A DNA stretch of 32,000 nt from Pseudobacteroides cellulosolvens ATCC 35603 = DSM 2933 (GTDB lineage: Bacteria > Bacillota > Clostridia > Acetivibrionales > DSM-2933), in contig NZ_LGTC01000001.1 of the NCBI RefSeq assembly GCF_001262605.1, positions 1,071,192-1,103,191 of the forward strand, in the 5' to 3' direction. The position numbers and the translations under genes are program-made. Positions 412 to 26,689 of this stretch are shown here, in pieces. Every line of letters begins with the position of its first letter. The stretch's first letter is position 1. The notes under the pieces are model-generated. The model had not been told where the DNA came from. It saw nothing but the letters and a program-made list of their open reading frames with translations, and ran no database searches.

Positions 412-735
412 TTACAAATAATATCGAATAAACATCCAATTTGTAAAGAATCCCAATATAGATCCGAAAAAGATGTAAAAAATCCTAGATAGCAATTTGT
501 TTATTTTACTACTAAATTTAAATAAAATATATACAAGAACTAAAGAAAAAACAATATGCATATAAAATGAAAATTCATTTACTATTAAGTGGTCATTTGC
601 AGAATATACACCCATTGGAAACTTTTGAGTAAAGTCCATAAGATTGAAGGCAATATTTATTAATAAGTTAATAATAAATGGGCTTGCATAATACGACAAT
701 TTATATCTGTTTTTAGCTTCAAAACAAAGGAACAT
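412..735 (-). CDS. hypothetical small membrane protein (107 aa, about 3 hydrophobic helices)
   Basis: ORF-track ORF with a GGAGG Shine-Dalgarno 5-6 nt upstream of the ATG at 735 (minus strand cagatGGAGGatatATG). The sequence is hydrophobic. I recognise no family. Confidence 0.45.
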   Translation of the reverse strand: MFLCFEAKNRYKLSYYASPFIINLLINIAFNLMDFTQKFPMGVYSANDHLIVNEFSFYMHIVFSLVLVYILFKFSSKINKLLSRIFYIFFGSILGFFTNWMFIRYYL

Positions 736-761
736 ATATCCTCCATCTGATTACACGAAAT

Positions 762-778
762 CTTTATTTCGTGTAATC
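762..778. repeat. attL: 17-bp core ctttatttcgtgtaatc shared by all three prophage junctions
   Basis: The same 17-mer occurs at 762-778 and 7722-7738. It recurs at 16495-16511 with t instead of c at the first base. Sequence identity between the repeat units starts exactly at this core. Here the core forms the loop and right arm of a 13-bp-arm palindrome (749-761 gattacacgaaat / 766-778 atttcgtgtaatc). Confidence 0.8.
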
Positions 779-858
779 TATTGTAAATCTTTTTACCCCA
801 TACCCCTATTATCTATTAATATTCAAAACAGACTATTTATTTAAAAATAATAACTTTT

Positions 859-1059
859 CTAAACTTTCTTCAAATCATTTAATTTAAGAGTACCTAAAAA
901 CTGAGTTAATCCTTCATCGTCACAAATCTCAATTTCACAATCAACATCACTATAAATTTCAAGAATGGTACCTTTTTGTCCTTTTATAAGACTATGTTCT
1001 GGTATGTCACATAATAATTCTACCACATCAAATTCTTTCATTATTTTCAATGCCCCCAT
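859..1059 (-). CDS. DUF4926-like small protein (66 aa)
   Basis: MKEFDVVELLCDIPEHSLIKGQKGTILEIY..CEIEICDDEGLT..LGTLKLNDLK follows the pattern I associate with DUF4926 proteins. It is the last gene of the phage minus-strand cluster. Confidence 0.55.
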   Translation of the reverse strand: MGALKIMKEFDVVELLCDIPEHSLIKGQKGTILEIYSDVDCEIEICDDEGLTQFLGTLKLNDLKKV

Positions 1060-1095
1060 ATATAAAATTTAATTTTATTTTACACTTCAAATATA

Positions 1096-1362
1096 TTATT
1101 GTAAAAGCTTTTCCAAGCTTTTCTTAATTTTATCAAGTTCTTTCTTATATTTGCAAGTTTCACATTCAAAAAGTCTATCTTTAATACGGCGATTGCTTGA
1201 ATGATCTTCAATAAAGTTTTCACAATATTGTGGTATGTAATGTCGATTATAATTGTTTCTGATGTTAATGCATCTAATACAATGATCTAAACATTCAGCA
1301 CTATTAAGACAATAACCGCATCGACACCAGTAACAATTATATAAAGGTATTTTATAAGGCAT
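1096..1362 (-). CDS. Cys-rich small protein (88 aa, 11 Cys), possible metal-binding; function unknown
   Basis: ORF-track ORF with a clustered Cys pattern (CYWCRCGYC..C..C..C ... C ... CETC) and a Lys-rich helical tail. It is identical in both copies. Confidence 0.5.
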   Translation of the reverse strand: MPYKIPLYNCYWCRCGYCLNSAECLDHCIRCINIRNNYNRHYIPQYCENFIEDHSSNRRIKDRLFECETCKYKKELDKIKKSLEKLLQ

Positions 1363-1485
1363 TTTATATATCCTTTTTGCAATTTTTTAATTATTAAATT
1401 TCATATTTTAGTCGATTTTGGGTACGATCCGAACAGAATCTGCACAAAAACATGAAATTTAGACTATCGTTGACTGCATCACATA

Positions 1486-2667
1486 TTAAGCAACTGCATC
1501 TATTTCAGCCATAATTTTTTGTACCTCTTCGCTAACAGAATCATCAACATATTTATTATCAGCAAAAGTAAAGTCATCAGGAACAATAGAAAATTGCTTG
1601 AGGTTAACAACTGATGTTGTCCATGATATTCCTGATTCAATTAATATCTTTTTATATTTGTAGAATGTAGCTTTTTTATAATTTTGCTTTGTTTGTTCTT
1701 CTCCAAACTGTACCATTTGTGTCCACATTGAATATAAACTATTAGATAATCTTGTATCAAATAATTCATTTAATTTTTCTAATACTAAGTCACTACGCCT
1801 TACGATATCCATTTGGTCGTCCTCCTTAATTATCTTTTTTAACTCTGAATCTCTGAATGATTCTAAGGTTTTATCATCAATCATATATACAAATACCTTC
1901 TCTGAATCATATAATTCTTTGAGTTTTCTTATTTTTATTGAACATTCAAAACGGATAGTTCTCATTGCTCTTTCTAATATTTTATCAAACTTAATTTTTA
2001 ATAATGCTAGTTTATGACCAATATTATAATCACCATGAACTACAGAACAACTTTTATCTAATTCCCTTTTTATATATTTATCAATTCTCTTCCAGTCATG
2101 TTTTTTAAATTCAGGGCCCTTCCAGTAAAATTTATCAGTACATGTTGAACCAGAAAACATTAATGAAGTATCAAATATTATAGGTTTTCTTCTAGTATAA
2201 TAAGCATTCTTTAAATTTTCCATAATTTTCTTACATATGGAATGATGCTTAAAAACAAATATTTTTGACACATCAATTTTTTCTACTTCCCACCAATGAT
2301 AAGGTGGTAAATTAACATTCATTGCATTTTCTAAAAACTTTATTAAATACTTGACTGATTGTTGTATCTTTGTAGGACCACCGAAACAATTATGATTCAT
2401 CATTAACTTATGTAAACTACATTCAACCTTTATATACCAAGGCACTTTTATTTTTTCAGGTATACCATTTTCATTAATCCAATCGGTATTATCTACTGTT
2501 AACCTTATTCTATAATCATAACTGCCTTCAAGTTCACCAGAAGTAAATTGATATAATATTTCTCCTGTTTCAAAATTTAGACCCTCATAAATATTGCAAA
2601 AAGTTATTATTTTATCTTTAGTAATATCATCTATTTCAGGAGATTTAATAATTATTGTATCGTACAT
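1486..2667 (-). CDS. rolling-circle replication initiation protein, filamentous-phage gene II/X (G2P)-like
   Basis: 393 aa with GGAGG 11 nt upstream. The N-terminus MYDTIIIKSP and the segment ECSLHKLMMNHNCFGG resemble the S-x-x-K-x-x-x-G-H-N-x-F-G signature I recall for phage/plasmid replication protein II/X. Its position next to the Zot-like gene fits. Confidence 0.7.
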   Translation of the reverse strand: MYDTIIIKSPEIDDITKDKIITFCNIYEGLNFETGEILYQFTSGELEGSYDYRIRLTVDNTDWINENGIPEKIKVPWYIKVECSLHKLMMNHNCFGGPTKIQQSVKYLIKFLENAMNVNLPPYHWWEVEKIDVSKIFVFKHHSICKKIMENLKNAYYTRRKPIIFDTSLMFSGSTCTDKFYWKGPEFKKHDWKRIDKYIKRELDKSCSVVHGDYNIGHKLALLKIKFDKILERAMRTIRFECSIKIRKLKELYDSEKVFVYMIDDKTLESFRDSELKKIIKEDDQMDIVRRSDLVLEKLNELFDTRLSNSLYSMWTQMVQFGEEQTKQNYKKATFYKYKKILIESGISWTTSVVNLKQFSIVPDDFTFADNKYVDDSVSEEVQKIMAEIDAVA

Positions 2668-2700
2668 TTTTGTTTAACCTCCATTAAAATTTTTTATTTT

Positions 2701-2851
2701 GTCTATGTACGTAGACTCTCGTCGGGTGTTACATAGACCCGACGTGTTTTTCTCTTCAAACTATCTACTGCTTTTGTAGGGGTTTTTCTTAAAGTCTGTA
2801 GCGAATGGGTACCCCCTCCACACAGTGGAGCCTCCCCCATTCACTACAGAC
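2701..2851. other. hairpin-rich intergenic region between the Zot-like and Rep genes; candidate origin or packaging signal
   Basis: gtctatgta (2701-2709) pairs with tacatagac (2730-2738). cgtcggg (2720-2726) pairs with cccgacg (2738-2744), so the two helices interleave. A 58-nt hairpin spans 2794-2851, with 16-nt arms gtctgtagcgaatggg / cccattcactacagac (one mismatch) and an inner ctcca/tggag stem. The region is more GC-rich than its surroundings. Confidence 0.5.
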
Positions 2852-3545
2852 TAAAATCCAAAGACCTGTCAAAAGCTGAATAGCTATCATAAAGATTAGA
2901 ATACATTTTTTTGAATGTAAAAAATTGTATTCCACACTTTTCATTTACACCATACCAATAGGTAACAACGACAAATGCCTTAAGCTGTAAAAGTGATATT
3001 ATCATTCCTACAGTTCCAAAATTGTTAATTTTACGGTGCTTACAGTTATACTCAATAAATGCCCTAATCTGTCTATCAATAAGCCTATCATTCTGAGCAA
3101 TTAATATAACGTTATATCCAAGATGCCTATGCAACTGAAAAAACTTTATCCAGTTTGGGCGGTCTTTTCTGGAATATTCCCTGGGATTAAATATTACAGG
3201 ACATTCATCAATAATTAAAAGTGTCTGCCCTTCCCTACCCTTTTTATGATTATGTTTAGCAAAACATACAAGCAAAGTAGGATTAAGCTTAGAATTATCT
3301 ATGTAAAGGAATTTTCCTATTTTATACTCTAACTTGCCCTGAAGCTTTTCTTTTACCTTTTCTTCTTTCTTAAATAGTCTTGCAATTTTTAATATAATAT
3401 TCTTTATAGGCTTAAATTTAACTATTTCAAGATTAATAGGAAAATTAGATATTACATTATGTCCACGTCTTAATTTGAACATTATATCCCTTGCAACATT
3501 AAGACTTTTCCCACTTCCTGGTGTTCCTGAATTAAGATAAATCAT
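2844..3545 (-). CDS. Zot-like P-loop assembly ATPase (pI analogue), 233-aa form
   Basis: Walker A GTPGSGKS near the N-terminus and Walker B LLIIDECP, in the position of gene I in inovirus synteny. The stop codon lies in the right arm of the 2794-2851 hairpin. The C-terminal tail is hydrophilic, unlike the copy-2 form. Confidence 0.8.
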   Translation of the reverse strand: MIYLNSGTPGSGKSLNVARDIMFKLRRGHNVISNFPINLEIVKFKPIKNIILKIARLFKKEEKVKEKLQGKLEYKIGKFLYIDNSKLNPTLLVCFAKHNHKKGREGQTLLIIDECPVIFNPREYSRKDRPNWIKFFQLHRHLGYNVILIAQNDRLIDRQIRAFIEYNCKHRKINNFGTVGMIISLLQLKAFVVVTYWYGVNEKCGIQFFTFKKMYSNLYDSYSAFDRSLDFSL

Positions 3546-3558
3546 ATTTTAACACCCC

Positions 3559-3819
3559 TTATTTAATCATTCTTGCCCATCTCAAAATGAGCTGATAAGT
3601 ATAATAGACAGCCACTACAATTAACCATGCTTCTAATATGCTAATCATTTGGGCTATAGGTAACACCCAATTTAGTCCACCAAGAAATGAATTTACATCG
3701 GCATTATTTACAGTGTGAAATGGTGAATCAGGCAAAAGATTTATAATCCTTGCAACTAATTCAATTAACTTTTGTGTAATGCCTCCAAAAATATCACCAA
3801 ATATATCCATATTAATCAC
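3559..3819 (-). CDS. small membrane protein, pVI-like minor coat candidate (86 aa)
   Basis: Its size, hydrophobic segments and position between the pIII-like and Zot-like genes fit pVI. The annotated start at 3819 is GTG, and the ATG at 3810 is an alternative. It overlaps the upstream gene by 8 nt. Confidence 0.5.
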   Translation of the reverse strand: MINMDIFGDIFGGITQKLIELVARIINLLPDSPFHTVNNADVNSFLGGLNWVLPIAQMISILEAWLIVVAVYYTYQLILRWARMIK

Positions 3820-5122
3820 CTATAAACCTTCTTGAATTAATAATTAAAATAAAAGTGAAAATTAAAAGAGTTCCCCACCTTACAATTTTTGCCCATGCTT
3901 CAAACTGTGAAAAGTCTATAGTAAATTTACCTCCGCCCTTAAAAACAGAGTTTGAAAGGTCAATTTCCCATACGGGTGCTTTTGGTGTTGATTTTAATGC
4001 AACTACTGAATTATAAATGTCATATGGTATACAAAATGGAAACTTTCTTTTCATGAAATCACTTGGAATTGTTGGTGTATCTGTTCCCCATGTATTTGTT
4101 TCATTTGGGTCTGTCCATTCAAGCAAAACAAACTTTTTTGTAAATACAATTTTTCCAGTTGCATCCTTTATTTCAACTATGTTTTGTCCAATTTTATAAG
4201 GATTATTATATTTACCTTGCTCAACATTATAAAAATGATCATCGTAATAAGTTATTTGTTGATTTATAGGACAATCATTATATTTAACACCATTAACATA
4301 TATAGAATGCAATTGTTTGTTATATGTACCAGTACGTAAAACATACCATGTTGGAGCATATTGATATGTCTTTTCATTGTCAAATCCTATTATGTCTATT
4401 TTATTTGCATTAGTTTGCACTATTTCGAATTGTACTTCTGCTAATATTTCTCCAAATCCCGGTTCTCCTGGTGCAAGTCCTGTATTTTCTATGGTTATGC
4501 GATTTATACCTGGTACATATGGAATAATTTTTCCGGGAACATAAAAACCACTTAATGATTCGGTTAAATCCCATATATAAGTCATATTCATTTCCCAATT
4601 ACCATTTTTATCTTTTCCATATAAAATTACATCATAAGAAGAACCGTTGGTATCTGTAATTATTTGTATATTTGGATTTTCATCTATATATTTTTTTGAA
4701 CCTATAGGACTAATAAATTCAAATGTTGGTATATGTTCGTTACTTATTTTGTGTATTGTGCCATCATCATATACTACATCATAATTAGTATATACAAATG
4801 TTTGCCACGTGCCACCATGATAAAAATTTGCTGTTTGAAACCATTGTGAAATTTGCCCATTGTACAATTCAACTTCTATATAATTTCCTGAATTCTGTTT
4901 CCATAGTTGTTCAGTTTTATTATTCATTATTAACTTATCTTGCGAGTATATTGTTGTAGATACTAATTTACCATTATTTATATGTTCAATTACTGTTATA
5001 TAAGGATAGTCAATTGCATTATATTGCGTTAATGTTGTTGGTGATATTGTGTATGCAAAACAATTTATATAAAATCCTAAAGAAACAACTAATAAAATCA
5101 TAACATATAGTATTTTTTTCAT
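3812..5122 (-). CDS. pIII-like adsorption/minor coat protein candidate (436 aa)
   Basis: It has an N-terminal signal peptide (MKKILYVMILLVVSLGFYINCFA) and a C-terminal membrane anchor (WGTLLIFTFILIINSRRF). It lies immediately after the major coat gene, as gene III does. No sequence family is recognised. Confidence 0.55.
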   Translation of the reverse strand: MKKILYVMILLVVSLGFYINCFAYTISPTTLTQYNAIDYPYITVIEHINNGKLVSTTIYSQDKLIMNNKTEQLWKQNSGNYIEVELYNGQISQWFQTANFYHGGTWQTFVYTNYDVVYDDGTIHKISNEHIPTFEFISPIGSKKYIDENPNIQIITDTNGSSYDVILYGKDKNGNWEMNMTYIWDLTESLSGFYVPGKIIPYVPGINRITIENTGLAPGEPGFGEILAEVQFEIVQTNANKIDIIGFDNEKTYQYAPTWYVLRTGTYNKQLHSIYVNGVKYNDCPINQQITYYDDHFYNVEQGKYNNPYKIGQNIVEIKDATGKIVFTKKFVLLEWTDPNETNTWGTDTPTIPSDFMKRKFPFCIPYDIYNSVVALKSTPKAPVWEIDLSNSVFKGGGKFTIDFSQFEAWAKIVRWGTLLIFTFILIINSRRFIGD

Positions 5123-5139
5123 AACCTCACCGTCCCTTC

Positions 5140-5166
5140 AAAAAAAGGGACAGCCGAAGCCATCCC
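5140..5166 (-). terminator. intrinsic terminator after the major coat gene
   Basis: The minus strand reads GGGAUGGC-UUCG-GCUGUCCC (8-bp stem including two G-U pairs, UUCG tetraloop) followed by U7. It lies between the coat and pIII-like genes, as in Ff phages. The copy-2 equivalent is at 12100-12126. Confidence 0.6.
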
Positions 5167-5183
5167 CATTCCCTTTGGCAAAA

Positions 5184-5432
5184 TTATTTTGCCAGGCTTG
5201 CAAAAAACCTTTTGCCATACTTCCAAACCAAAAATGCACCAAATACAGCCAAACCATATGGAGCAACTTTGGCAAGACCTGCTAATACATCCGATTTGAT
5301 AGCAGTAAAATCAGTATCCATAGCAGTTGCTGTTCCTTCATCAAGTGCAGCAAATGACTGTATTGATACCATTGCAACTGCTAAACAAGTAAAAATAACT
5401 GATAAAAGTTTCTTTTTGTTTAATCTTTTCAT
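5184..5432 (-). CDS. major coat protein precursor (pVIII-like, 82 aa)
   Basis: It has a signal peptide ending SFA, an acidic mature N-terminus (ALDEGTATAMDTD), a hydrophobic core (GLAKVAPYGLAVFGAFLVW) and a basic C-terminus (KYGKRFFASLAK). This is the canonical inovirus coat layout. GGAGGG sits upstream. Confidence 0.8.
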   Translation of the reverse strand: MKRLNKKKLLSVIFTCLAVAMVSIQSFAALDEGTATAMDTDFTAIKSDVLAGLAKVAPYGLAVFGAFLVWKYGKRFFASLAK

Positions 5433-5461
5433 AAAAGACCCTCCTTAAATATGTAATTAGA

Positions 5462-5569
5462 TTATCTAAACAGTCTTAAACAGACCGTAAAGCCAAAACT
5501 TAAAAGAAATGCACTACCTGTAATTACTAAACCCCATTTCAAACCCATAAACACTAAACTAAAATCCAT
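5462..5569 (-). CDS. 35-aa hydrophobic protein, pVII/pIX-like minor coat candidate (not in ORF track)
   Basis: The minus strand reads AGGTGGTGctgatATG, then MDFSLVFMGLKWGLVITGSAFLLSFGFTVCLRLFR*. The RBS overlaps the stop of the upstream ORF. Size and position match gene VII/IX. Confidence 0.45.
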   Translation of the reverse strand: MDFSLVFMGLKWGLVITGSAFLLSFGFTVCLRLFR

Positions 5570-5580
5570 ATCAGCACCAC

Positions 5581-5736
5581 CTAAGAATTACGATTAAAGC
5601 ATGATACAAATACCAAAACAACAACTGTTGCAATAAAGAAACCAAAAAATATATTAATTAAAGATATTGCATCGTTTACTGCTTTTAATGTCTGATATTC
5701 GTAATATGTACCATAAACCGCTTCATAAACTGCCAT
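5581..5736 (-). CDS. 51-aa small membrane protein, minor coat candidate
   Basis: I trimmed the 76-aa track ORF to the internal ATG at 5736 (MAVYEAVYGTYYEYQ...). That ATG starts 4 nt after the stop of the upstream gene and has AGAGG upstream. The longer form would overlap the ssDNA-binding candidate by 71 nt. Confidence 0.4.
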   Translation of the reverse strand: MAVYEAVYGTYYEYQTLKAVNDAISLINIFFGFFIATVVVLVFVSCFNRNS

Positions 5737-5740
5737 GACA

Positions 5741-6052
5741 CTATACCTCTGAAAGTAATTCAAGTGAATCCAGTTTAACCTGGAGTTTACCTTTAACATT
5801 CTTAAATGCAAAGGTCATTGTGTAAAATGCTGGCACAACTGTAACTGAGCCGATTTTTTCAGTTGGAAGACTTTCTTTAACAACCTTTGTTCCTAAAGTG
5901 CCATCTTCATTTAATAAAGGTTTAAGAGAATCTACCGGAATATACTCAATTGTATTCCCTTCCCTTACTTCCCCTGTTCTTTCATCAACCATTGACCACT
6001 TGTTAGGATTGGCGAACGTTACAAGTCCGATTACTTTATTTTCCATGCTCAT
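5741..6052 (-). CDS. ssDNA-binding protein candidate (pV analogue, 103 aa)
   Basis: The call rests on size and position upstream of the coat module, and on a beta-rich composition. No motif is recognised. Confidence 0.4.
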   Translation of the reverse strand: MSMENKVIGLVTFANPNKWSMVDERTGEVREGNTIEYIPVDSLKPLLNEDGTLGTKVVKESLPTEKIGSVTVVPAFYTMTFAFKNVKGKLQVKLDSLELLSEV

Positions 6053-6168
6053 TCCTCCTCATCATCTTTATAATTACATTGTGTACAATGCCAAAATGCG
6101 TCTTCATAAATTCCCATTGCGTTACATCCGATGTCAACCATTTCTGCCCCACAGTTAGGACAATTCAT
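6049..6168 (-). CDS. 39-aa zinc-ribbon protein
   Basis: I trimmed the 61-aa track ORF to the ATG at 6168, which is preceded by GGAGGGGG. The protein MNCPNCGAEM...HCTQCNYKDDEEE has two CxxC pairs. Its stop overlaps the next start (ATGA). Confidence 0.5.
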   Translation of the reverse strand: MNCPNCGAEMVDIGCNAMGIYEDAFWHCTQCNYKDDEEE

Positions 6169-6212
6169 AACAACCCCCTCCACATCGAACAATCGTTCTA
6201 ATATTATTGTAC

Positions 6213-6271
6213 TACTTGTGTAACCTATTAGCAAAACAGTTATTCCTACTTCTGTAACCTATTAGTAAAAC
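6213..6271. repeat. two 25-bp direct repeats (23/25 identical, 34-bp period); candidate operator or iteron
   Basis: The repeats are tacttgtgtaacctattagcaaaac (6213-6237) and tacttctgtaacctattagtaaaac (6247-6271). They lie between the predicted minus-strand promoter and the first structural-operon gene. The copy-2 equivalents span 14988-15046. Confidence 0.6.
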
Positions 6272-6325
6272 GAAAATATTTTTAAAAATCATATAACTGA
6301 CAACATCAAACGTATTACACTTTTA

Positions 6326-6355
6326 ATTATATATCTGTATAACATTCAATGTCAA
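6326..6355 (-). promoter_or_regulatory. sigma-A-like promoter for the phage minus-strand operon
   Basis: The minus strand reads TTGACA (6350-6355), an 18-nt spacer, then TATAAT (6326-6331). The copy-2 equivalent is at 15101-15130. Confidence 0.5.
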
Positions 6356-6364
6356 TAGTATGAT

Positions 6365-6393
6365 ATATTATATCTTAGGCAATATGTTATAAT
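6365..6393 (+). promoter_or_regulatory. divergent promoter for the RHH regulator gene (extended -10)
   Basis: TGtTATAAT lies at 6385-6393 with a weak -35. It is back-to-back with the minus-strand promoter. The copy-2 equivalent is at 15140-15168. Confidence 0.35.
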
Positions 6394-6426
6394 ACTTTTA
6401 AAATATACTTAGAAAGGATGTTTTTA

Positions 6427-6603
6427 ATGGCAAAAGATATTTTCACACTAAGAATTACACCTGAAATTTTGAATAAAATTAAAGCTATAGCAGGAATAGA
6501 AAAAAGAACAACAGCAACACAAATAGAGTATGCATTAGAAATATATATAAAAGACTATGAAAAATTACATGGTAAAGTTGAAGTAAAAGATAATGATGAA
6601 TAA
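6427..6603 (+). CDS. ribbon-helix-helix (CopG/Arc/MetJ-like) transcriptional regulator, 58 aa
   Basis: FTLRITPEILNKIKAIAGIEKRTTATQIEYALEIYI fits a strand-helix-helix pattern. I moved the start to the ATG at 6427, about 10 nt after AAAGGA, because the track start at 6418 is too close to the RBS. The gene is divergent from the structural operon. Confidence 0.55.
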   Translation: MAKDIFTLRITPEILNKIKAIAGIEKRTTATQIEYALEIYIKDYEKLHGKVEVKDNDE

Positions 6604-6613
6604 AAGGTGAATT

Positions 6614-6949
6614 ATGCAAAATAAAAGCTTAATTAAACATAAAAAAGAAATTTTATTATATTATAAATTATTGTCTATTTTATCTATAATATGTCTTGGT
6701 ATCATATTTCCTTTTATATTTAGCTTTTTGCATAAAGCAGATTTAATATCTCCATATATTATTAACATACCATTAAAATATTTTTATATATTTTATAGTG
6801 TTTTAGGAATGGTTGTAGGGTTTACAATTAGCTATATTAAAATATTAAAACTAAAGTTGTTTTTAGAAAGTTGTTTACGTATAGAAAAAATTGAAGAAGA
6901 TATATCAAAAATATTATATGAAAAGAATGATATTTATCAATCTTCCTAA
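6614..6949 (+). CDS. small membrane protein (111 aa, 2 TM plus helical tail); function unknown
   Basis: ORF-track ORF, 10 nt after the RHH gene and preceded by AAGGTG. It is hydrophobic and identical in both copies. Confidence 0.5.
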   Translation: MQNKSLIKHKKEILLYYKLLSILSIICLGIIFPFIFSFLHKADLISPYIINIPLKYFYIFYSVLGMVVGFTISYIKILKLKLFLESCLRIEKIEEDISKILYEKNDIYQSS

Positions 6950-15201: not shown

Positions 15202-15378
15202 ATGGCAAAAGATATTTTCACACTAAGAATTACACCTGAAATTTTGAATAAAATTAAAGCTATAGCAGGAATAGAAAAAAGAACAACAGCAACACAAATA
15301 GAGTATGCATTAGAAATATATATAAAAGACTATGAAAAATTACATGGTAAAGTTGAAGTAAAAGATAATGATGAATAA
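15202..15378 (+). CDS. RHH transcriptional regulator (copy 2)
   Basis: Same as 6427-6603. Confidence 0.55.
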   Translation: MAKDIFTLRITPEILNKIKAIAGIEKRTTATQIEYALEIYIKDYEKLHGKVEVKDNDE

Positions 15379-15388
15379 AAGGTGAATT

Positions 15389-15724
15389 ATGCAAAATAAA
15401 AGCTTAATTAAACATAAAAAAGAAATTTTATTATATTATAAATTATTGTCTATTTTATCTATAATATGTCTTGGTATCATATTTCCTTTTATATTTAGCT
15501 TTTTGCATAAAGCAGATTTAATATCTCCATATATTATTAACATACCATTAAAATATTTTTATATATTTTATAGTGTTTTAGGAATGGTTGTAGGGTTTAC
15601 AATTAGCTATATTAAAATATTAAAACTAAAGTTGTTTTTAGAAAGTTGTTTACGTATAGAAAAAATTGAAGAAGATATATCAAAAATATTATATGAAAAG
15701 AATGATATTTATCAATCTTCCTAA
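15389..15724 (+). CDS. small membrane protein (copy 2)
   Basis: Same as 6614-6949. Confidence 0.5.
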   Translation: MQNKSLIKHKKEILLYYKLLSILSIICLGIIFPFIFSFLHKADLISPYIINIPLKYFYIFYSVLGMVVGFTISYIKILKLKLFLESCLRIEKIEEDISKILYEKNDIYQSS

Positions 15725-16240
15725 TAAATAGCCCTAAAATGGGCTTTATTTTATGTCGAAAATGCGTAAGGGTGAAGAATGAAGAATTCACTGGATTATC
15801 GAAATTTGGGTAGTTTTCCCGCAAAAATTCGCCTTAAATCGTAATATCTTACCGCCCTTTACGTGCCTGTCAAAATTTATTCTGGGAACCCCGAAGTAAT
15901 TAGTTCCTAATTGTCTATACCTGCCCGCGTTCGAACTCTCACCCCAAGAAAGTACAGAGATATTTTATAATGCAGTGTCGGGGTTCAACAAGCTTTAAGA
16001 GTGCATTAGGTCACTCGTTGAAGTAATGCTAATTTGTTTGAACTCACCCCCGCCCCTTGAAGGGGAGGCAATTACCTTTCATTCTTGGCTTTTGATTTTA
16101 CCTCCCCTTTTTGTCAAGGGATGACGGCATAAGTAGTAATAATAACGGGTCGCTCAACTTATACGTCATTAACCCTTGACATGGTCATCCTATTGGGTCG
16201 GCGGTCTTCGAAGCCAACAAGAATGAAAGGATGATGAATT
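15725..16240. other. structured ORF-free intergenic region (copy 2)
   Basis: It equals 6950-7467 apart from two single-C deletions in C-runs. Confidence 0.55.
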
Positions 16241-16453
16241 ATGAATATCGAATTTAATGGAAAATCAATTGCAAATTACAAACTTGAAGTTAGCCAAATA
16301 GAACTTTGGGAAATCAAGAACGCAATCAAAAGAAAATTGAAAAAAGAAAGAGAATTTATTGATGAGATGTACACTGAAAATCAAGATGAAGAATTTGAGA
16401 AATCAAACAGAACATTAATACTTATGCTTGAATCTATCGAAAAAATAATATAA
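16241..16453 (+). CDS. hypothetical 70-aa protein (copy 2)
   Basis: Same as 7468-7680. Confidence 0.5.
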   Translation: MNIEFNGKSIANYKLEVSQIELWEIKNAIKRKLKKEREFIDEMYTENQDEEFEKSNRTLILMLESIEKII

Positions 16454-16475
16454 GCCGGAGAAATCCGGCTTTTTT
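16454..16475 (+). terminator. intrinsic terminator (copy 2)
   Basis: gccgga-gaaa-tccggc followed by T6. Confidence 0.75.
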
Positions 16476-16494
16476 CCATTTCAAAAAACATTCT

Positions 16495-16511
16495 TTTTAT
16501 TTCGTGTAATC
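16495..16511. repeat. attR core (ttttatttcgtgtaatc)
   Basis: This is the third copy of the junction core. It is followed by agat (16512-16515), which completes the palindrome arm begun at 745. Confidence 0.8.
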
Positions 16512-16627
16512 AGATATTAATCTTTTCCCTTATATCCTATTATAAATAAATAAATTATCTATACATAGTTAACTCAAATCATCTCTATACATTAATATTA
16601 TAAAAAAACTCAATAAACATGAAACCA

Positions 16628-21190: not shown

Positions 21191-24100
21191 TTAATATTTC
21201 CCAAATTCATTATTACTTAAAGAAATCTTCTTTATACCTGAAGCTCCACCTATTGCAGATGGCTTTTTATTTGTAGACATATTCTCAATCATTTTCAACA
21301 CTTCAGGATTAAGATCATTACTGCTATCAGTTTTCTTAAGATTAAATTTATTTACCATTTCCTTGAGGACTTCTGCCTGACTGGAAAGCTCTTCACTTGC
21401 AGCTGCACTTTCTTCTGACGTAGCAGAGTTTGTTTGAGTAACTTGTGATACCTGCATTATACCTTGATTAACCTGTGCAATACCTGAGGCCTGCTCATTA
21501 GAAGCAGAAGCAATATCTCCTACCAGGTTTGCAGCTTTTGCTACACCGTCAACTATTTTATTGAGGGCTTCTGCTGTATCATTAGCAATCCTGGTTCCAC
21601 CCTCAACCTTCTTAATAGAACCTTCAATAAGCACCGTTGTTTCTTTAGCAGCATTAGCAGACCTTGCAGCGAGATTTCTTACTTCCTCTGCTACCACTGC
21701 AAAACCCTTGCCGTGCTGTCCTGCTCTTGCAGCTTCTACAGCAGCATTAAGTGCGAGTATGTTTGTTTGGAATGCGATTTCATCAATGACTTTTATAATC
21801 TTTGAAATGTTTGCTGAAGATTCATTAATATCACCCATTGCCTTTAACATTCCAGCCATTTGTTCATTTCCTTTGACTGCATCCTGTTTAGCCGATAGAG
21901 CCAATTCATTCGCCTGATTTGCATTAACGGCATTCTGCTTGGTTTGAGAAGCAATTTCATCCATTGAAGCTGTTAATTCTTCAATTGAACTGGCTTGTTC
22001 CGTAGATCCCTGTGATAAAGCCTGTGCAGAATCAGATATCTGTCTGGAGCCTGAAGCCACCTGTATAGCAGCAATGTTTATATCATTTAAAACATCATTA
22101 AAGGATTTTAATGTGAAATTAAGATCATTTTTTATTTTAGCATATTCGCCTTTATAATCGCCGGTCATGCTAACTGTAAGATTACCTTTAGCCATTTCCT
22201 GCATGACAGATGTAGCCTCTTGTATTGGTTCGGCAAAAGCTTCCATTGTCTTATTCATACCCTCAATGATTTCTTTATACCCACCTTTAAATTTACTCTC
22301 ATTCCCTCTTACATCCAATTCACCATCTATTGCAGCTTTGGCAAGAATACCTGCCTCGCTTACCAAATCACGTATTGATCTCATGGCTTCGATACAGGCA
22401 GGCATAATCTTATCATTTTCGGATCTTTTTCCTATCTTTTCAAAATCTTCCAACTTGCTTGAATCACCTTTACCAACGCGTTCAAAAGCATCCTGTATAC
22501 TTATTAATCTGGTATGGACTTGATTTATAGCTTCTGCAAACTCTTTAAATGTACCTTTATATTGGCCGGTCATTTGTGTAGTAAAATCATTGACAGAAAT
22601 CTTTTCAAGTACTTTCTTTGCTTCTGTTAAAGGTATTTCTATTGCATCAATGGTATCGTTTACACCTTTAACGATTGTTGCATATCCACCCTTTAGCTTA
22701 TTAACATCGCTTCGAACAGAAATTTTACCCTCCGTGGCAGCTTTTGCAAGCATAGTCGTCTCATCAATAAGTGTATAAAGTGAGGCCCTTACTTTATTAA
22801 GGTTATCAATTAATACCCTGAAATCACCCTTATACTTATTTTCTATTATTTCCAACTCTTCACCTTTTGACATTTTTTCTATGTACCCTGCTGCAAAATT
22901 TAGTGGTTCCATGACAGCATCAAGCGTATTATTAATGCCCTCGACGATTTTTCTATACTCCCCATTGTGCTGCGAAGCATTTGCTCTTGATTCAAGATTG
23001 CCGTTAATTGCAGAAGATACAAGAGTTTCTGCATCACTGATCATTAGGTTAAGTGCTGATTTAACTTTAGTGAGACTATTATTGATCTTTACAAAGTTTT
23101 CTCTGGCTTCTTTGGTAAATTGGTCTGCTTCTTTTACACTAAGATCCATATCCAGTCTTCCTTCAGCCAGCATATCTAAATTTGCAGCAAGACGTTCAAC
23201 TTCTTCTTTTGTGTAGGAATTTACTTTAAGAATTGATGTTAGGTCGGTAACAACCTCAACAAACCCAATACTTTCACCCTTCCTATTTCTAAGATATGAA
23301 GTGTCCTGTTTGCAGCTCATTCCGCACCAGTCAAAATAGCTTTCGGCTTTACCCTTTAAAAGTTGCTTTATACCACAGTTTTGCGTATTACAAATATTGG
23401 CTCCAGCATTACTGCATTGTCTGCCATATCCATCCTTTCGTTCCCTCACTACGCCCTGTTCAATCATCAATTTCTCAAAGGATTTATTCATATAAGTCCA
23501 GTTCATATCATTATCAGTTACATGTATTGGGAAAGGCACTGCATCAATAATCGCCTCATACCATGCATTCCTATCGTTTACCGTATCCAATGTCTGGTTT
23601 ACACCTTCTACTATCTTCCTGTATTGCCCATCATGTTTTTGAGCATCCGCTCTTACTGAAAACTTACCTGCAATTGCTGAATCGGAAAGCATGGATACAT
23701 CTCCAATCAGCTTTCCTATTGCTTCCTTTGTTTTCTCCAAGGAGTTGTTTATTTTTATAAAGTCCTCTCTTGCTTCTTCTGTAAATTGGTTGCTTTCAGC
23801 TACTTGCATATTCAGATTGAGATCGCCTTTTGAAAGTAAATCAAGGTTAGATGCCAAACGATCTACTTCTTTTTTTGTGTATTCATTAACACTTAATATG
23901 GAAGACAAGTCAGTTACTACTTCAACATATCCTACTACCTCTCCTTTTGCATTTCTTAAATGTGAAGTATCTTGTTTGCAATTCATACCGCACCAATCAA
24001 AATAGCTTTCCGGAACCCCTTTTTGAAGTTGCTTGATACCACATTTCTGAGTATTGCAAATATTAGCCCCAGCATGGCTGCAAGCTTTTCCATATCCAGA

Positions 24101-24379
24101 CCTGCGGTTTTTAATTACACCCTGTTCAATCATTAATTTTTCAAAGGCTTTATTCATGTAAGTCCAGTTCATATCTCCATCAGTAACATGAATAGGAAAA
24201 GGAACAGCGTCGATAATTTCTTCATACCAGGCCATTCTTTCTGCAATTTTTTTTAGCAGCGATATTATTCCTTCCGAATCTTTTGAATCTGATTCAATAG
24301 TAATGTTTGTCTCACCAGCAGCTATTTTTTCAGCCATTACCACAATCTTATTAAATGCTTTATCGCTAAACCATTTCAT
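21191..24379 (-). CDS. soluble methyl-accepting chemotaxis protein with duplicated Cys-rich PAS-like sensor modules and a poly-HAMP-like region (1062 aa)
   Basis: The C-terminal MCP signalling domain reads ...[41 protein letters not shown].... There is no N-terminal TM helix. A 222-aa module (aa 50-271 and 272-493) is duplicated. Confidence 0.9.
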
Positions 24380-25204: not shown

Positions 25205-26689
25205 TTAAATATACTCTATCAAATCCATGAAATTTTCAACGCTTTCTAATTTCCTTATAAGGCTTATTCTGGCAGAATGAGCTTTTTTATCTTGAGTCTT
25301 AACTATAAGTTTCGTATCTTCAATTATCTTTTGGATTTCATTCTTAAGCCGCAATAGTTGGTCCTCTTTGTAACTTGTAAAACAATCCAGACCAAGGATT
25401 TTATTGGAAAATACTACTCCACTGTCAACTCTCTTTATATTGATTTTAATTTTTGAAGTATTGTAATCAATAAGCTTTCTTGCTAGATTAAGGCTTCCCA
25501 GCTTGTCTATATCCATTGTGGTTCCACAGCTTGAGCATATTAGCAAATCCTTGTTGAACCTGTTCTTTTTGGAATTCCGCCCACAACTGCAGCATGTATA
25601 ATAAATACCTATAGGGCTTACCTTAATAGGCTTGGGAAGTCCTTTCCATTGAAGCTTGTACTCTAGAAGGCTTACCATTCGGTTATAGTCCTTCCTCTTA
25701 AATCGAGGCAGGTATTGATCCAGATCATTATCACTCCACCCCAACCCATCTCCTCTTTGTGAAAGGTTTTGAACTATTATCTGTGCTTTATGAGAAATGG
25801 CTATATCGGTAATTATATTAGCTGCTTTATGCAGCTTATTTAAAGGTATTCCTGATGAATCATCATTTTTTTCCAGAGTATCAATCTCACCGGATATTAT
25901 TATTTCCCCGTGAGAATTCACAACAGTATAATGAAGGTTGCTTTTTAGCCCTCTGCTAACACCCATATACGCCATAGTGCTTATGCTCTTTGACTCACCC
26001 GCTTCTATTGATATGGCCAGATAATATTCATTATCCCTTACTAAAAGTCTCGCAGTCTTGAAACACTCGGGTGCTTTAGACGCCTCCTTTATAATCCTCT
26101 CCTGCCATTTACCGAAAGAAAGCGGTACAATAATATGAGTTTCCTTCCTTCTCTTTCTTTCCAGCATCTTATTGTCTTTATGAACATGAACCAGGCCTTC
26201 CCTTATATTAGCCTCCGCCGCTGTCCTTGCATTAGGACCGTTAAGCAGATAAAGTTTAACATAATACCTGTCCTTTTCCTTGTCATAAAGCAGGCAGTAA
26301 CCTCTTTTGGTATCGTACCTGCAAAAATAAATAGGACGGAAATAACTGAAGGCTGCTTCTTTATTCACATTTTCCTGGCATACGCTTCCAGTTCTCAAAC
26401 AGTCGGCCATGGCATATGCAAATTCAAGTCTCAAAGAATCTTTAAACGGCTGTACATCGAATTTGTTCAGCTCCTGACTTAAGTTGCTGTCAATCCATTT
26501 TGAAAGTGCCAGTATATTATATTGACCGGCCTTCACTTTAAACCTTTGTTCAAGTTCAGGTAAGCAGTTGCCTGCTTTGTTTATGAGAAATTCAAAGGCC
26601 TTGTTATAGCCAAGTAAAGCATCATTAATAATTTGCTGCTTTGCTTTACTTGGCTTATGAAGTTTTAAAACAATTGTCCTCATCCCCAT
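25205..26689 (-). CDS. TnpB/Cas12f-like RNA-guided-nuclease homologue with substituted RuvC catalytic residues (494 aa)
   Basis: The N-terminus RTIVLKLHKPSKAKQQIINDAL...YNKAF resembles the typical TnpB opening. IIVPLSFGKWQ resembles the wedge-strand motif. The RuvC-I position reads MGVSRGL (S245 where GxDxG is expected). The RuvC-II position reads IIVQNLS (Q307 where E is expected). The zinc finger C366-x2-C369...C385-x2-C388 is intact. RuvC-III reads MDIDKLGSLNLAR, so the Asp is retained. Confidence 0.7.
   Translation of the reverse strand: MGMRTIVLKLHKPSKAKQQIINDALLGYNKAFEFLINKAGNCLPELEQRFKVKAGQYNILALSKWIDSNLSQELNKFDVQPFKDSLRLEFAYAMADCLRTGSVCQENVNKEAAFSYFRPIYFCRYDTKRGYCLLYDKEKDRYYVKLYLLNGPNARTAAEANIREGLVHVHKDNKMLERKRRKETHIIVPLSFGKWQERIIKEASKAPECFKTARLLVRDNEYYLAISIEAGESKSISTMAYMGVSRGLKSNLHYTVVNSHGEIIISGEIDTLEKNDDSSGIPLNKLHKAANIITDIAISHKAQIIVQNLSQRGDGLGWSDNDLDQYLPRFKRKDYNRMVSLLEYKLQWKGLPKPIKVSPIGIYYTCCSCGRNSKKNRFNKDLLICSSCGTTMDIDKLGSLNLARKLIDYNTSKIKINIKRVDSGVVFSNKILGLDCFTSYKEDQLLRLKNEIQKIIEDTKLIVKTQDKKAHSARISLIRKLESVENFMDLIEYI

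Follow-up and report, generated by a model that had tools for sequence, protein, structure and literature searches.

We analyzed a 32,000-nucleotide stretch of the Pseudobacteroides cellulosolvens ATCC 35603 = DSM 2933 genome (contig NZ_LGTC01000001.1, positions 1,071,192 to 1,103,191; hereafter the window), in which two tandem copies of a filamentous phage, an inovirus, interrupt a palindrome. It is likely that this palindrome is the chromosomal dif-type site of a host Xer-family system and that the phage, which lacks a recognizable integrase, was inserted there by the host recombinase through an attachment site (attP) that mimics dif in part. [quoted passage not shown] The palindrome is most likely the dif-type site of Pseudobacteroides, Acetivibrio, Ruminiclostridium, and related Clostridia, because in relatives it lies at the replication terminus, is often linked to a recombinase gene, keeps its symmetry under divergence, and is accompanied by a recombinase of the Xer family.

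Junctions of the prophage array

To a direct reading and a script alike, the core CTTTATTTCGTGTAATC was exact at 762-778 and 7722-7738, and a third copy at 16495-16511 differed by its first base only, which is T. The stretch around the left junction, attL (735-800), reads CCTCC ATCTGATTACACGAAAT CTTT ATTTCGTGTAATC TATTG. The tandem junction, which represents attP (7710-7738), reads AAAAAACATTCT CTTT ATTTCGTGTAATC, and the right junction, attR (16483-16515), reads AAAAAACATTCT TTTT ATTTCGTGTAATC AGAT. When 745-778 was joined by script to 16512-16515, the product was ATCTGATTACACGAAAT-CTTT-ATTTCGTGTAATCAGAT, a perfect 17+4+17 palindrome in which 17/17 arm positions are complementary and pairing ends at position 18; the arms of attL by itself span 13 bp. 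The first-pass annotation of this DNA had described the three cores, the reconstructed palindrome, and the shorter arms of attL in these terms, and all were confirmed. As single-stranded DNA (ssDNA), the reconstructed site folds with -16.6 kcal/mol (z = -10.5 versus shuffles). Within the window, the 16-mer of the core is found at the three junctions and in the inverted arm and nowhere else.

The prophage is therefore flanked by a complete site (attL) and a dif-like hybrid (attR), and attP consists of a consensus arm, a center, and a degenerate arm. Read on the minus strand of the window, which is the orientation that places xer genes of other species to the right, attP is Lp(ATTACACGAAAT)-AAAG-Dp(AGAATGTTTTTT), where Dp matches the arm consensus at 5/12 positions. 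In the same frame the host site is Lh-AAA(A/G)-Rh-purine flank, and the whole array is Lh-AAAA-Dp (copy 2) Lp-AAAG-Dp (copy 1) Lp-AAAG-Rh-flank.

We scanned the open reading frames (ORFs) of at least 60 aa in the phage unit, minus those embedded antisense in a larger gene, and found no match to integrase, serine recombinase, or transposase families in Pfam or PHROGs, in line with the earlier statement that the phage encodes no integrase. The first-pass annotation had allowed for a recombinase gene that it might have missed, and one was indeed overlooked, namely the IS110-family (DEDD) transposase of copy 2 (Table 1); as this belongs to a secondary insertion in one copy, the idea of an integrase-less phage still stands. 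We consider it exceedingly improbable that this enzyme integrated the phage. Neisseria filamentous prophages use a Piv/IS110-like recombinase that targets palindromic repeats, IS110 enzymes are site-specific, and a transposase is present inside the array. The recombinase gene of the Neisseria-type systems, however, is integral to every copy, whereas the 1811-bp IS110 element here is confined to one copy, where CTCC marks its own two ends and 4.6 kb separate it from the att junctions. Since it is absent from copy 1, from both prophage copies of a related lysogen (L115), and from the free genome of a related inovirus (L026), it does not appear to be the integration enzyme.

The 16-17-bp stretch that phage and host have in common could in principle have served a RecA-dependent homologous crossover, with the palindrome being incidental. 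This is highly improbable, given that 16 bp is very short for RecA, that the identity coincides exactly with one arm and the center of a conserved recombination-type site, and that in other hosts this site is also occupied, by the phage of the independent lysogen L115 and by further elements.

Conservation and terminus position of the palindrome

We searched one genome per species (185,579 species, 596 Gb) for the exact pattern TTACACGAAATNNNNATTTCGTGTAA, which is ATTACACGAAAT-N4-ATTTCGTGTAAT with 12-bp arms. The scan returned 22 stretches from 22 assemblies with a single site in each, all of them uninterrupted palindromes in other species; by our estimate, ∼0.07 matches would be expected by chance over the collection. 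The genomes belong to Acetivibrio, Ruminiclostridium (including R. sufflavum DSM 19573), Oscillospiraceae, and unclassified Clostridia. P. cellulosolvens was not returned although attL fits the pattern, and we assume that its record is absent or masked in that collection. Across 32 non-redundant sites the arms were invariant, and the 4-nt center was variable and A/T-rich. In one uninterrupted site (L023), the phage-distal arm is extended by ATCTG, as it is in the window.

The GC skew was positive to the left of the site in 21/22 loci and negative to its right in 16 of the 17 loci with at least 900 bp there. This change from plus to minus is independent of the orientation of the locus and is the signature of a replication terminus. 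Metagenome loci with 10-kb flanks showed the same switch, with left/right values of, for example, +0.12/-0.07 (L027), +0.15/-0.12 (L041), and +0.18/-0.20 (L073), and the switch was absent from 15 control loci that hold distant recombinase homologs without the palindrome. ORFs of at least 150 aa likewise converge on the site, with 80% of coding bases on the plus strand to its left and 70% on the minus strand to its right (34 non-redundant loci). In the complete genome of A. clariflavus, the site ATTACGCGAAAT AAAA ATTTCGTGTAAT lies at ∼2.057 of 4.898 Mb. The comparison with dif and the skew terminus proposed in the first-pass annotation was thus positive in the relatives; the window itself is taken up below.

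A linked recombinase of the Xer family

Near the site, 9/22 loci have a gene for a tyrosine recombinase (65-76% identity between species) that starts at a distance of ∼30-120 bp, and in two further loci this gene lies 2-4 kb away. We also carried out the reverse test, in which we started from the recombinase protein and fetched 80 metagenome loci. Among close orthologs (at least 69% identity) with upstream DNA, 16/18 carry the palindrome, and in 10 of these 16 it lies no more than ∼160 bp upstream of the recombinase gene. In R. sufflavum and in a metagenome-assembled genome (MAG; L004), xer and the site are on separate contigs and the site is fully conserved. Hence, the cognate xer of relatives may be beside the site or elsewhere in the genome, and the unlinked arrangement of the window occurs in genomes that possess the gene. 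One candidate host xer, picked by contig statistics, was rejected as it belongs to another MAG.

Variant sites keep their two-fold symmetry through changes in both arms, as in ATTCAACGAAAT-AATA-ATTTCGTTGAAT and in the arm pairs AGATCGTTAAAT/ATTTAGCGATCT and TAGTCACAAAAT/ATTTTGTGACTA. Orthologs that are 53-59% identical (L046, L047, L073) come with different yet palindromic 12-4-12 sites, in which the inner motif AAAT-N4-ATTT is kept. Co-variation of this kind would be expected if both arms were bound by a single protein species. The identical, co-varying arms argue for one binding specificity, and we infer that one recombinase would be sufficient.

The recombinase is 320-345 aa long and is annotated as XerC by NCBI, and its closest solved structures are XerD and XerA. 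Its NCBIfam scores were 220 bits for XerC (cut-off 335), 203 for XerD (330), 198 for XerA (220), and 155 for XerS (267). On these profile scores it is an Xer-family protein outside the XerC, XerD, XerA, and XerS equivalog families.

A purine-rich flank and the polarity of the site

When the 32 non-redundant sites were oriented solely by making the center A-rich, the right flank read T-G-G-R-R-G-K-A-G-G with almost no pyrimidines, and the left flank was unconserved A/T. A linked xer gene is always on the side of the purine flank and is transcribed away from the site. The flank (consensus TGGGAGKAGG) stands beside the palindrome in L004-L047, L107, L111, and L116 and is opposed in composition to the local GC skew. 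It may extend the binding site, stop or orient a translocase, or form part of a promoter. In the window, the flank on the minus strand, CAGATGGAGG, supplies the GGAGG of the 412-735 gene. There it stands at Shine-Dalgarno distance from the ATG of this 107-aa ORF, of which it may be the ribosome-binding site. A Shine-Dalgarno role was rejected as the main explanation for the position of the site, as the flank is also conserved in species that have no ORF after it.

These observations bear on whether the palindrome is primarily an operator or RNA hairpin of the adjacent gene (xer, or the 107-aa ORF), with the phage inserted by another host recombinase. In many genomes the site precedes a gene by 30-160 bp; in the window it directly precedes GGAGG-N6-ATG, and it forms a stable hairpin, all of which such a role would explain. 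We nevertheless regard it as unlikely. The site is unlinked from xer and yet fully conserved in R. sufflavum, the L004 MAG, and the window, and most sites in other species have no ORF starting beside them. An operator is not expected at a point of skew switch and gene convergence, nor would different elements be expected to insert into one again and again with their junctions in its 4-nt center. In addition, Rfam contains no family that matches the palindrome region, with nothing near threshold. The first-pass view of an operator-like site of the 412-735 gene is not upheld, as its GGAGG belongs to the conserved flank, beside which most other species have no ORF start. A dual role, as dif and as autoregulatory site, is possible.

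Proposed route of integration

The dif-type site would comprise two identical 12-13-bp arms, a 4-nt A/T center, and a purine flank on the xer side. The phage would bring the xer-distal arm, the center, and a degenerate second arm, such that attP is a partial dif mimic, and the host's own Xer recombinase, which probably inserts the phage, would exchange strands in the center. Integration would rebuild a complete functional dif at attL beside the host purine flank, where chromosome dimer resolution would continue, and would leave a defective hybrid with one degenerate arm at attR. With attL complete again and adjoining the xer-side flank, another phage could integrate at this position. A tandem array would result, in which the newer copy (762-7721) sits at attL and the older, IS110-hit copy lies beyond; alternatively, a dimeric replicative form may have integrated at once. 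The poor site at attR would make excision of the whole array inefficient, and progeny would then be made by rolling-circle replication that spans the tandem copies. This would resemble CTXphi, where tandem arrays are needed for progeny when excision is inefficient. We infer Xer catalysis of the integration, the order of the integrations, and the mode of phage production.

The center differs by one base between junctions, being CTTT at attL and at the internal junction and TTTT at attR. Related uninterrupted sites have TTTT in L023 and CTTT in L013, L014, and L025. If the native center was TTTT, the base that differs stayed with the distal arm at both junctions, and the recombinant chromosome would stem from strands joined at the xer-proximal border of the center. 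This would fit one strand exchange that replication then resolved, or a full reaction with later segregation of a heteroduplex center, and would exclude exchange only at the distal border. If the native center was CTTT, the T of attR is a later mutation; one base cannot decide. The crossover at the left edge of the core that had been read from this C/T difference is thus compatible with the center of L023, and the CTTT of the other relatives makes a point mutation possible as well.

A different route would be integration by the phage G2P-family replication protein (Rep), or by an ssDNA hairpin pathway of the CTXphi or IS200/IS605-like type, through recognition of a cruciform or hairpin. In favor of it, the target forms a perfect hairpin, the phage encodes a G2P-type Rep and passes through a single-stranded stage, and CTXphi integrates as folded ssDNA in which both arms are mimicked. 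No such folding is seen for the attP region of the window. Upon folding of 7540-7800, neither strand paired the consensus arm with a second arm, the lone stem near attP was weak (18 nt, 83% match, z ∼-2) and left the consensus arm single-stranded, and the 46-nt attP had no structure. The shared arm and center at the junctions are what tyrosine recombinases leave, and a phage Rep leaves site conservation, terminus position, and xer linkage unexplained. We know of no precedent for chromosomal integration mediated by G2P. Taken together, this route is very unlikely, and of the mechanisms offered in the first-pass annotation, the evidence favors a host Xer-like recombinase over a Rep/ssDNA hairpin.

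Several points weigh against integration by a host Xer system at dif. Within P. cellulosolvens no empty site was found: when the two flanking genes were looked up by exact protein match, all hits were lysogens, and the other records of P. cellulosolvens (L001, L002, L003) are 3/3 lysogens, probably of one strain. The flanking 501-aa ORF, as called, had no exact record in the protein look-up. The empty-site comparison suggested earlier consequently holds across species, through the 22 uninterrupted palindromes and the shared extension in L023, and not within P. cellulosolvens. An xer ortholog of P. cellulosolvens was not present in the window, and no Pseudobacteroides was among the 120 best hits of each of two homolog searches. 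In the window, the terminus signature shows on one side only: the skew is -0.16 across the 15 kb on the right and ∼0 across the 6.3 kb of host DNA on the left, and gene orientation is mixed. The check for a second canonical dif was confined to 1.23 Mb of fetched DNA, in which no B. subtilis-type dif was present with up to 6 mismatches. Where the site is just upstream of the recombinase gene, it could also be the operator of that gene. Lastly, attP is without a recognizable second arm, so synapsis would need weak binding or a helper.

Related elements at the site and the p88 family

A metagenome scaffold (L115) has the same right-flank genes as the window (carbamoyltransferase, SxtJ, DUF5989, and a 454-aa protein) and carries a related inovirus at the same site, again as a tandem pair. 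Its version of p88, an 88-aa Cys-rich protein of the window phage, is 86% identical. The xer-side junction of L115 consists of the phage arm ATTAAACGAAAT, AAAA, and the host arm ATTTCGTGTAATCAGATGGAGG. The phage-type A at position 5 of the former shows a phage origin of this arm and a host origin of the other, which places the exchange between arm position 5 and the other arm. The outermost distal junction of L115 (3019-3300) is preceded by GGGGTAAAAAGTATTACACTTG, which is close to the phage end GGGGTAAAAAGATTTACAGTAG, and has the phage-type arm ATTAAACGAAAT. Its sequence suggests a remnant of a third, older integration.

The free inovirus L026, a 6.2-kb IMG/VR contig with the same gene set, contains ATTGAACGAAAT AAAA ATTCCGCTGAAG directly after its p88 homolog; this site has one good arm, in the same position as in the window phage. 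A p88 homolog is also found in L021, a locus with a different small Rep element that encodes a 339-aa Rep-like protein. Next to this element (L021 1975-2100), a perfect and a degenerate dif-like site lie at a distance of 82 bp from each other, each followed by a near-identical 16-nt flank. In the orientation with an A-rich center, the degenerate site is CTTCAACGACAT CAAA GTTTCGTGTAAT, the reverse complement of L021 1990-2017. The L021 element appears to carry the xer-proximal arm, with a polarity opposite to that of the window phage. Lastly, L116 holds an orphan p88 homolog whose stop codon lies in the center of the site.

Genes of the p88 type are thus present in three inoviruses, one different Rep element, and one orphan gene that overlaps a chromosomal site (L115 10001-10270 and 17139-17408, L026 4527-4853, L021 1742-1990, and L116 10001-10267, beside the copies in the window). 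The proteins are 82-108 aa long and Cys-rich, with invariant IPLYNCYWCRCG...C..C motifs. They match no Pfam or PHROG family, and a word search gave few homologs. An AlphaFold2 model of p88 (mean predicted local distance difference test score 62, predicted template modeling score 0.42) was too poor for a fold search. In 5/5 cases the gene lies directly upstream of the consensus arm and is transcribed toward it, and this synteny, which is the basis of the proposal, makes p88 a speculative candidate for an accessory factor. A broader reading would be that of a novel dif/Xer system of Acetivibrionales-type Clostridia, with symmetric arms and an A-tract center of fixed polarity relative to the purine flank and xer, that Gram-positive half-site inoviruses exploit with p88 as an Xer loading, activation, or directionality factor analogous, though unrelated, to XafT of TLCphi. 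We put this forward tentatively, as a conjecture from sequence that may well not hold in full.

Comparison with known Xer systems

The closest parallel is XerS/difSL of streptococci and lactococci, where a dif-type site lies upstream of a dedicated tyrosine recombinase gene (Le Bourgeois 2007, PMC1914069). Both systems belong to Firmicutes and have inverted arms, a short center, a single copy, a skew switch, and a site immediately upstream of the recombinase gene. The recombinase described here, however, falls short of the XerS family (155 bits against 267) and of its length (320-345 aa versus 356 aa). The arms are perfectly symmetrical, with a 4-nt A-tract center and a conserved purine flank, and the linkage to xer has been lost in several species, including P. 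cellulosolvens. In XerH/difH of Helicobacter and Campylobacter (PMC3325230, PMC5241119), a lone recombinase acts with a palindromic site close to its gene, an arrangement that the present system would share. The similarity to XerH is weak (67 bits to chain 5jjv), and the phylum and the site sequence are different. Overall, the present system would work like the gene-linked single-recombinase modules XerS, XerH, and XerL, with a protein outside those families.

In terms of the mobile element, LME-1 of Legionella also carries a dif mimic, integrates beside the terminus, and thereby exposed an unrecognized dif/Xer system. LME-1 is not an inovirus, and XerL was found by experiment to be necessary and sufficient (Nicholson 2022, PMC9765430), whereas the system here is known from sequence alone. 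TLCphi and the gonococcal genetic island exploit XerC/XerD with a half-site attP (PMC5357621; PMC6744903). As in the window phage, one good arm and the center match dif, the second arm is degenerate, and integration rebuilds a usable dif on one side; in contrast, theirs is the two-protein XerC/XerD system of proteobacteria. TLCphi also brings its own activation factor, XafT (DUF3653), of which no homolog was seen here and to which p88 is unrelated. CTXphi of Vibrio cholerae resembles the window phage as an integrase-less inovirus that forms tandem arrays at dif.

A full-text literature search found no paper with the site sequence in a relevant context, and nothing on Xer exploitation by clostridial inoviruses or on Xer-exploiting elements in Clostridia. 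Where inoviruses of clostridia and Enterocloster have been described, direct repeats at their flanks were mentioned and no connection with dif was made. Dimer-resolution sites are poorly defined in Clostridia; a large 2011 dif survey covered few Clostridium genomes, and some of its predictions are far from the skew switch. If our assignment is true, the site would be a precise terminus marker for industrially important cellulolytic bacteria. It would also offer a marker-less, recombinase-free integration site for genetic tools, into which a plasmid with ∼30 bp should integrate. The phage would be the first worked example of lysogeny without an integrase by a Gram-positive filamentous phage. 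The symmetric arms raise the question of what imposes directionality and the order of strand exchange in a homomeric Xer system, which the polar center and the purine flank would make testable.

Features of the array and its surroundings

By its Zot, G2P/Phage_CRI Rep, coat, and Arc-like proteins, the element is an inovirus. The insert consists of two direct tandem copies that are 99.9% identical outside the IS110 insertion in the second (Table 1). This insertion is immediately upstream of the ribosome-binding site of the coat gene, in copy 2 only, and would date copy 2 as older or inactive. No DNA-level match to the inovirus was found among GenBank phages, where the best Rep match was 32% identical (a Lentisphaerae filamentous phage). 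A pattern method found no relatives of the phage Rep in IMG/VR, and the palindrome had no match in viral contigs.

Table 1. Coordinates of attachment sites, prophage genes, and neighboring features in the window.
Feature	Position	Strand	Remarks
107-aa hydrophobic ORF Bccel_0941	412-735	-	no family; sits where many relatives have xer
Purine-rich flank of site	736-749	-	CAGATGGAGGATAT; matches TGGGAGKAGG flank of xer-gene side elsewhere
attL, regenerated complete dif-like site	745-778		host arm 745-761 (conserved 12 bp, 750-761); center CTTT 762-765; phage-derived arm 766-778
Inovirus prophage copy 1	762-7721	-	6960 bp
DUF4926 protein, copy 1	859-1059	-	
p88, 88-aa Cys-rich protein	1096-1362	-	second copy 8057-8323; transcribed toward adjoining attP consensus arm
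G2P-type Rep (G2P/Phage_CRI rolling-circle), copy 1	1486-2667	-	
Zot/pI morphogenesis ATPase, copy 1	2844-3545	-	
pIII-like protein, copy 1	3812-5122	-	436 aa
Major coat protein, copy 1	5184-5432	-	82 aa
Putative ssDNA-binding protein, copy 1	5741-6052	-	103 aa; assigned by position; no family match
Arc-like repressor, copy 1	6418-6603	+	
attP at tandem junction	7710-7738		degenerate arm AAAAAACATTCT 7710-7721; center CTTT 7722-7725; consensus arm ATTTCGTGTAATC 7726-7738
Inovirus prophage copy 2	7722-16494	-	8773 bp; same genes plus IS110 insertion
IS110-family insertion sequence	12405-14215	-	1811 bp; CTCC at both junctions
IS110-family (DEDD) transposase	12814-14094	-	inside copy 2
attR hybrid site	16483-16515		degenerate phage arm 16483-16494; center TTTT 16495-16498; host arm ATTTCGTGTAATCAGAT 16499-16515

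The Zot/pI region differs between the copies: 2789-3545 encodes 233 aa and an overlapping 51-aa ORF in copy 1, and 9750-10505 encodes 251 aa in copy 2. The proteins of related phages have 272-278 aa, and there may be a frameshift near the 3′ end of the gene in one or both copies. The DNA to the right of attR (16512-16560) weakly resembles 779-825. An older phage-end remnant is one possible origin of this stretch; 25/500 shuffles scored equally well.

Two further observations concern the host DNA. A 494-aa ORF at 25205-26689 (minus strand), ∼9 kb from the prophage, contains a Cas12f1-like TNB domain (TnpB-type, IS605/IS607 family) and is unrelated to the att sites. A 1062-aa methyl-accepting-chemotaxis-like ORF (21191-24379) includes an internal 666-bp direct repeat with 68% identity (23079-24044), which is a duplicated sensor module.

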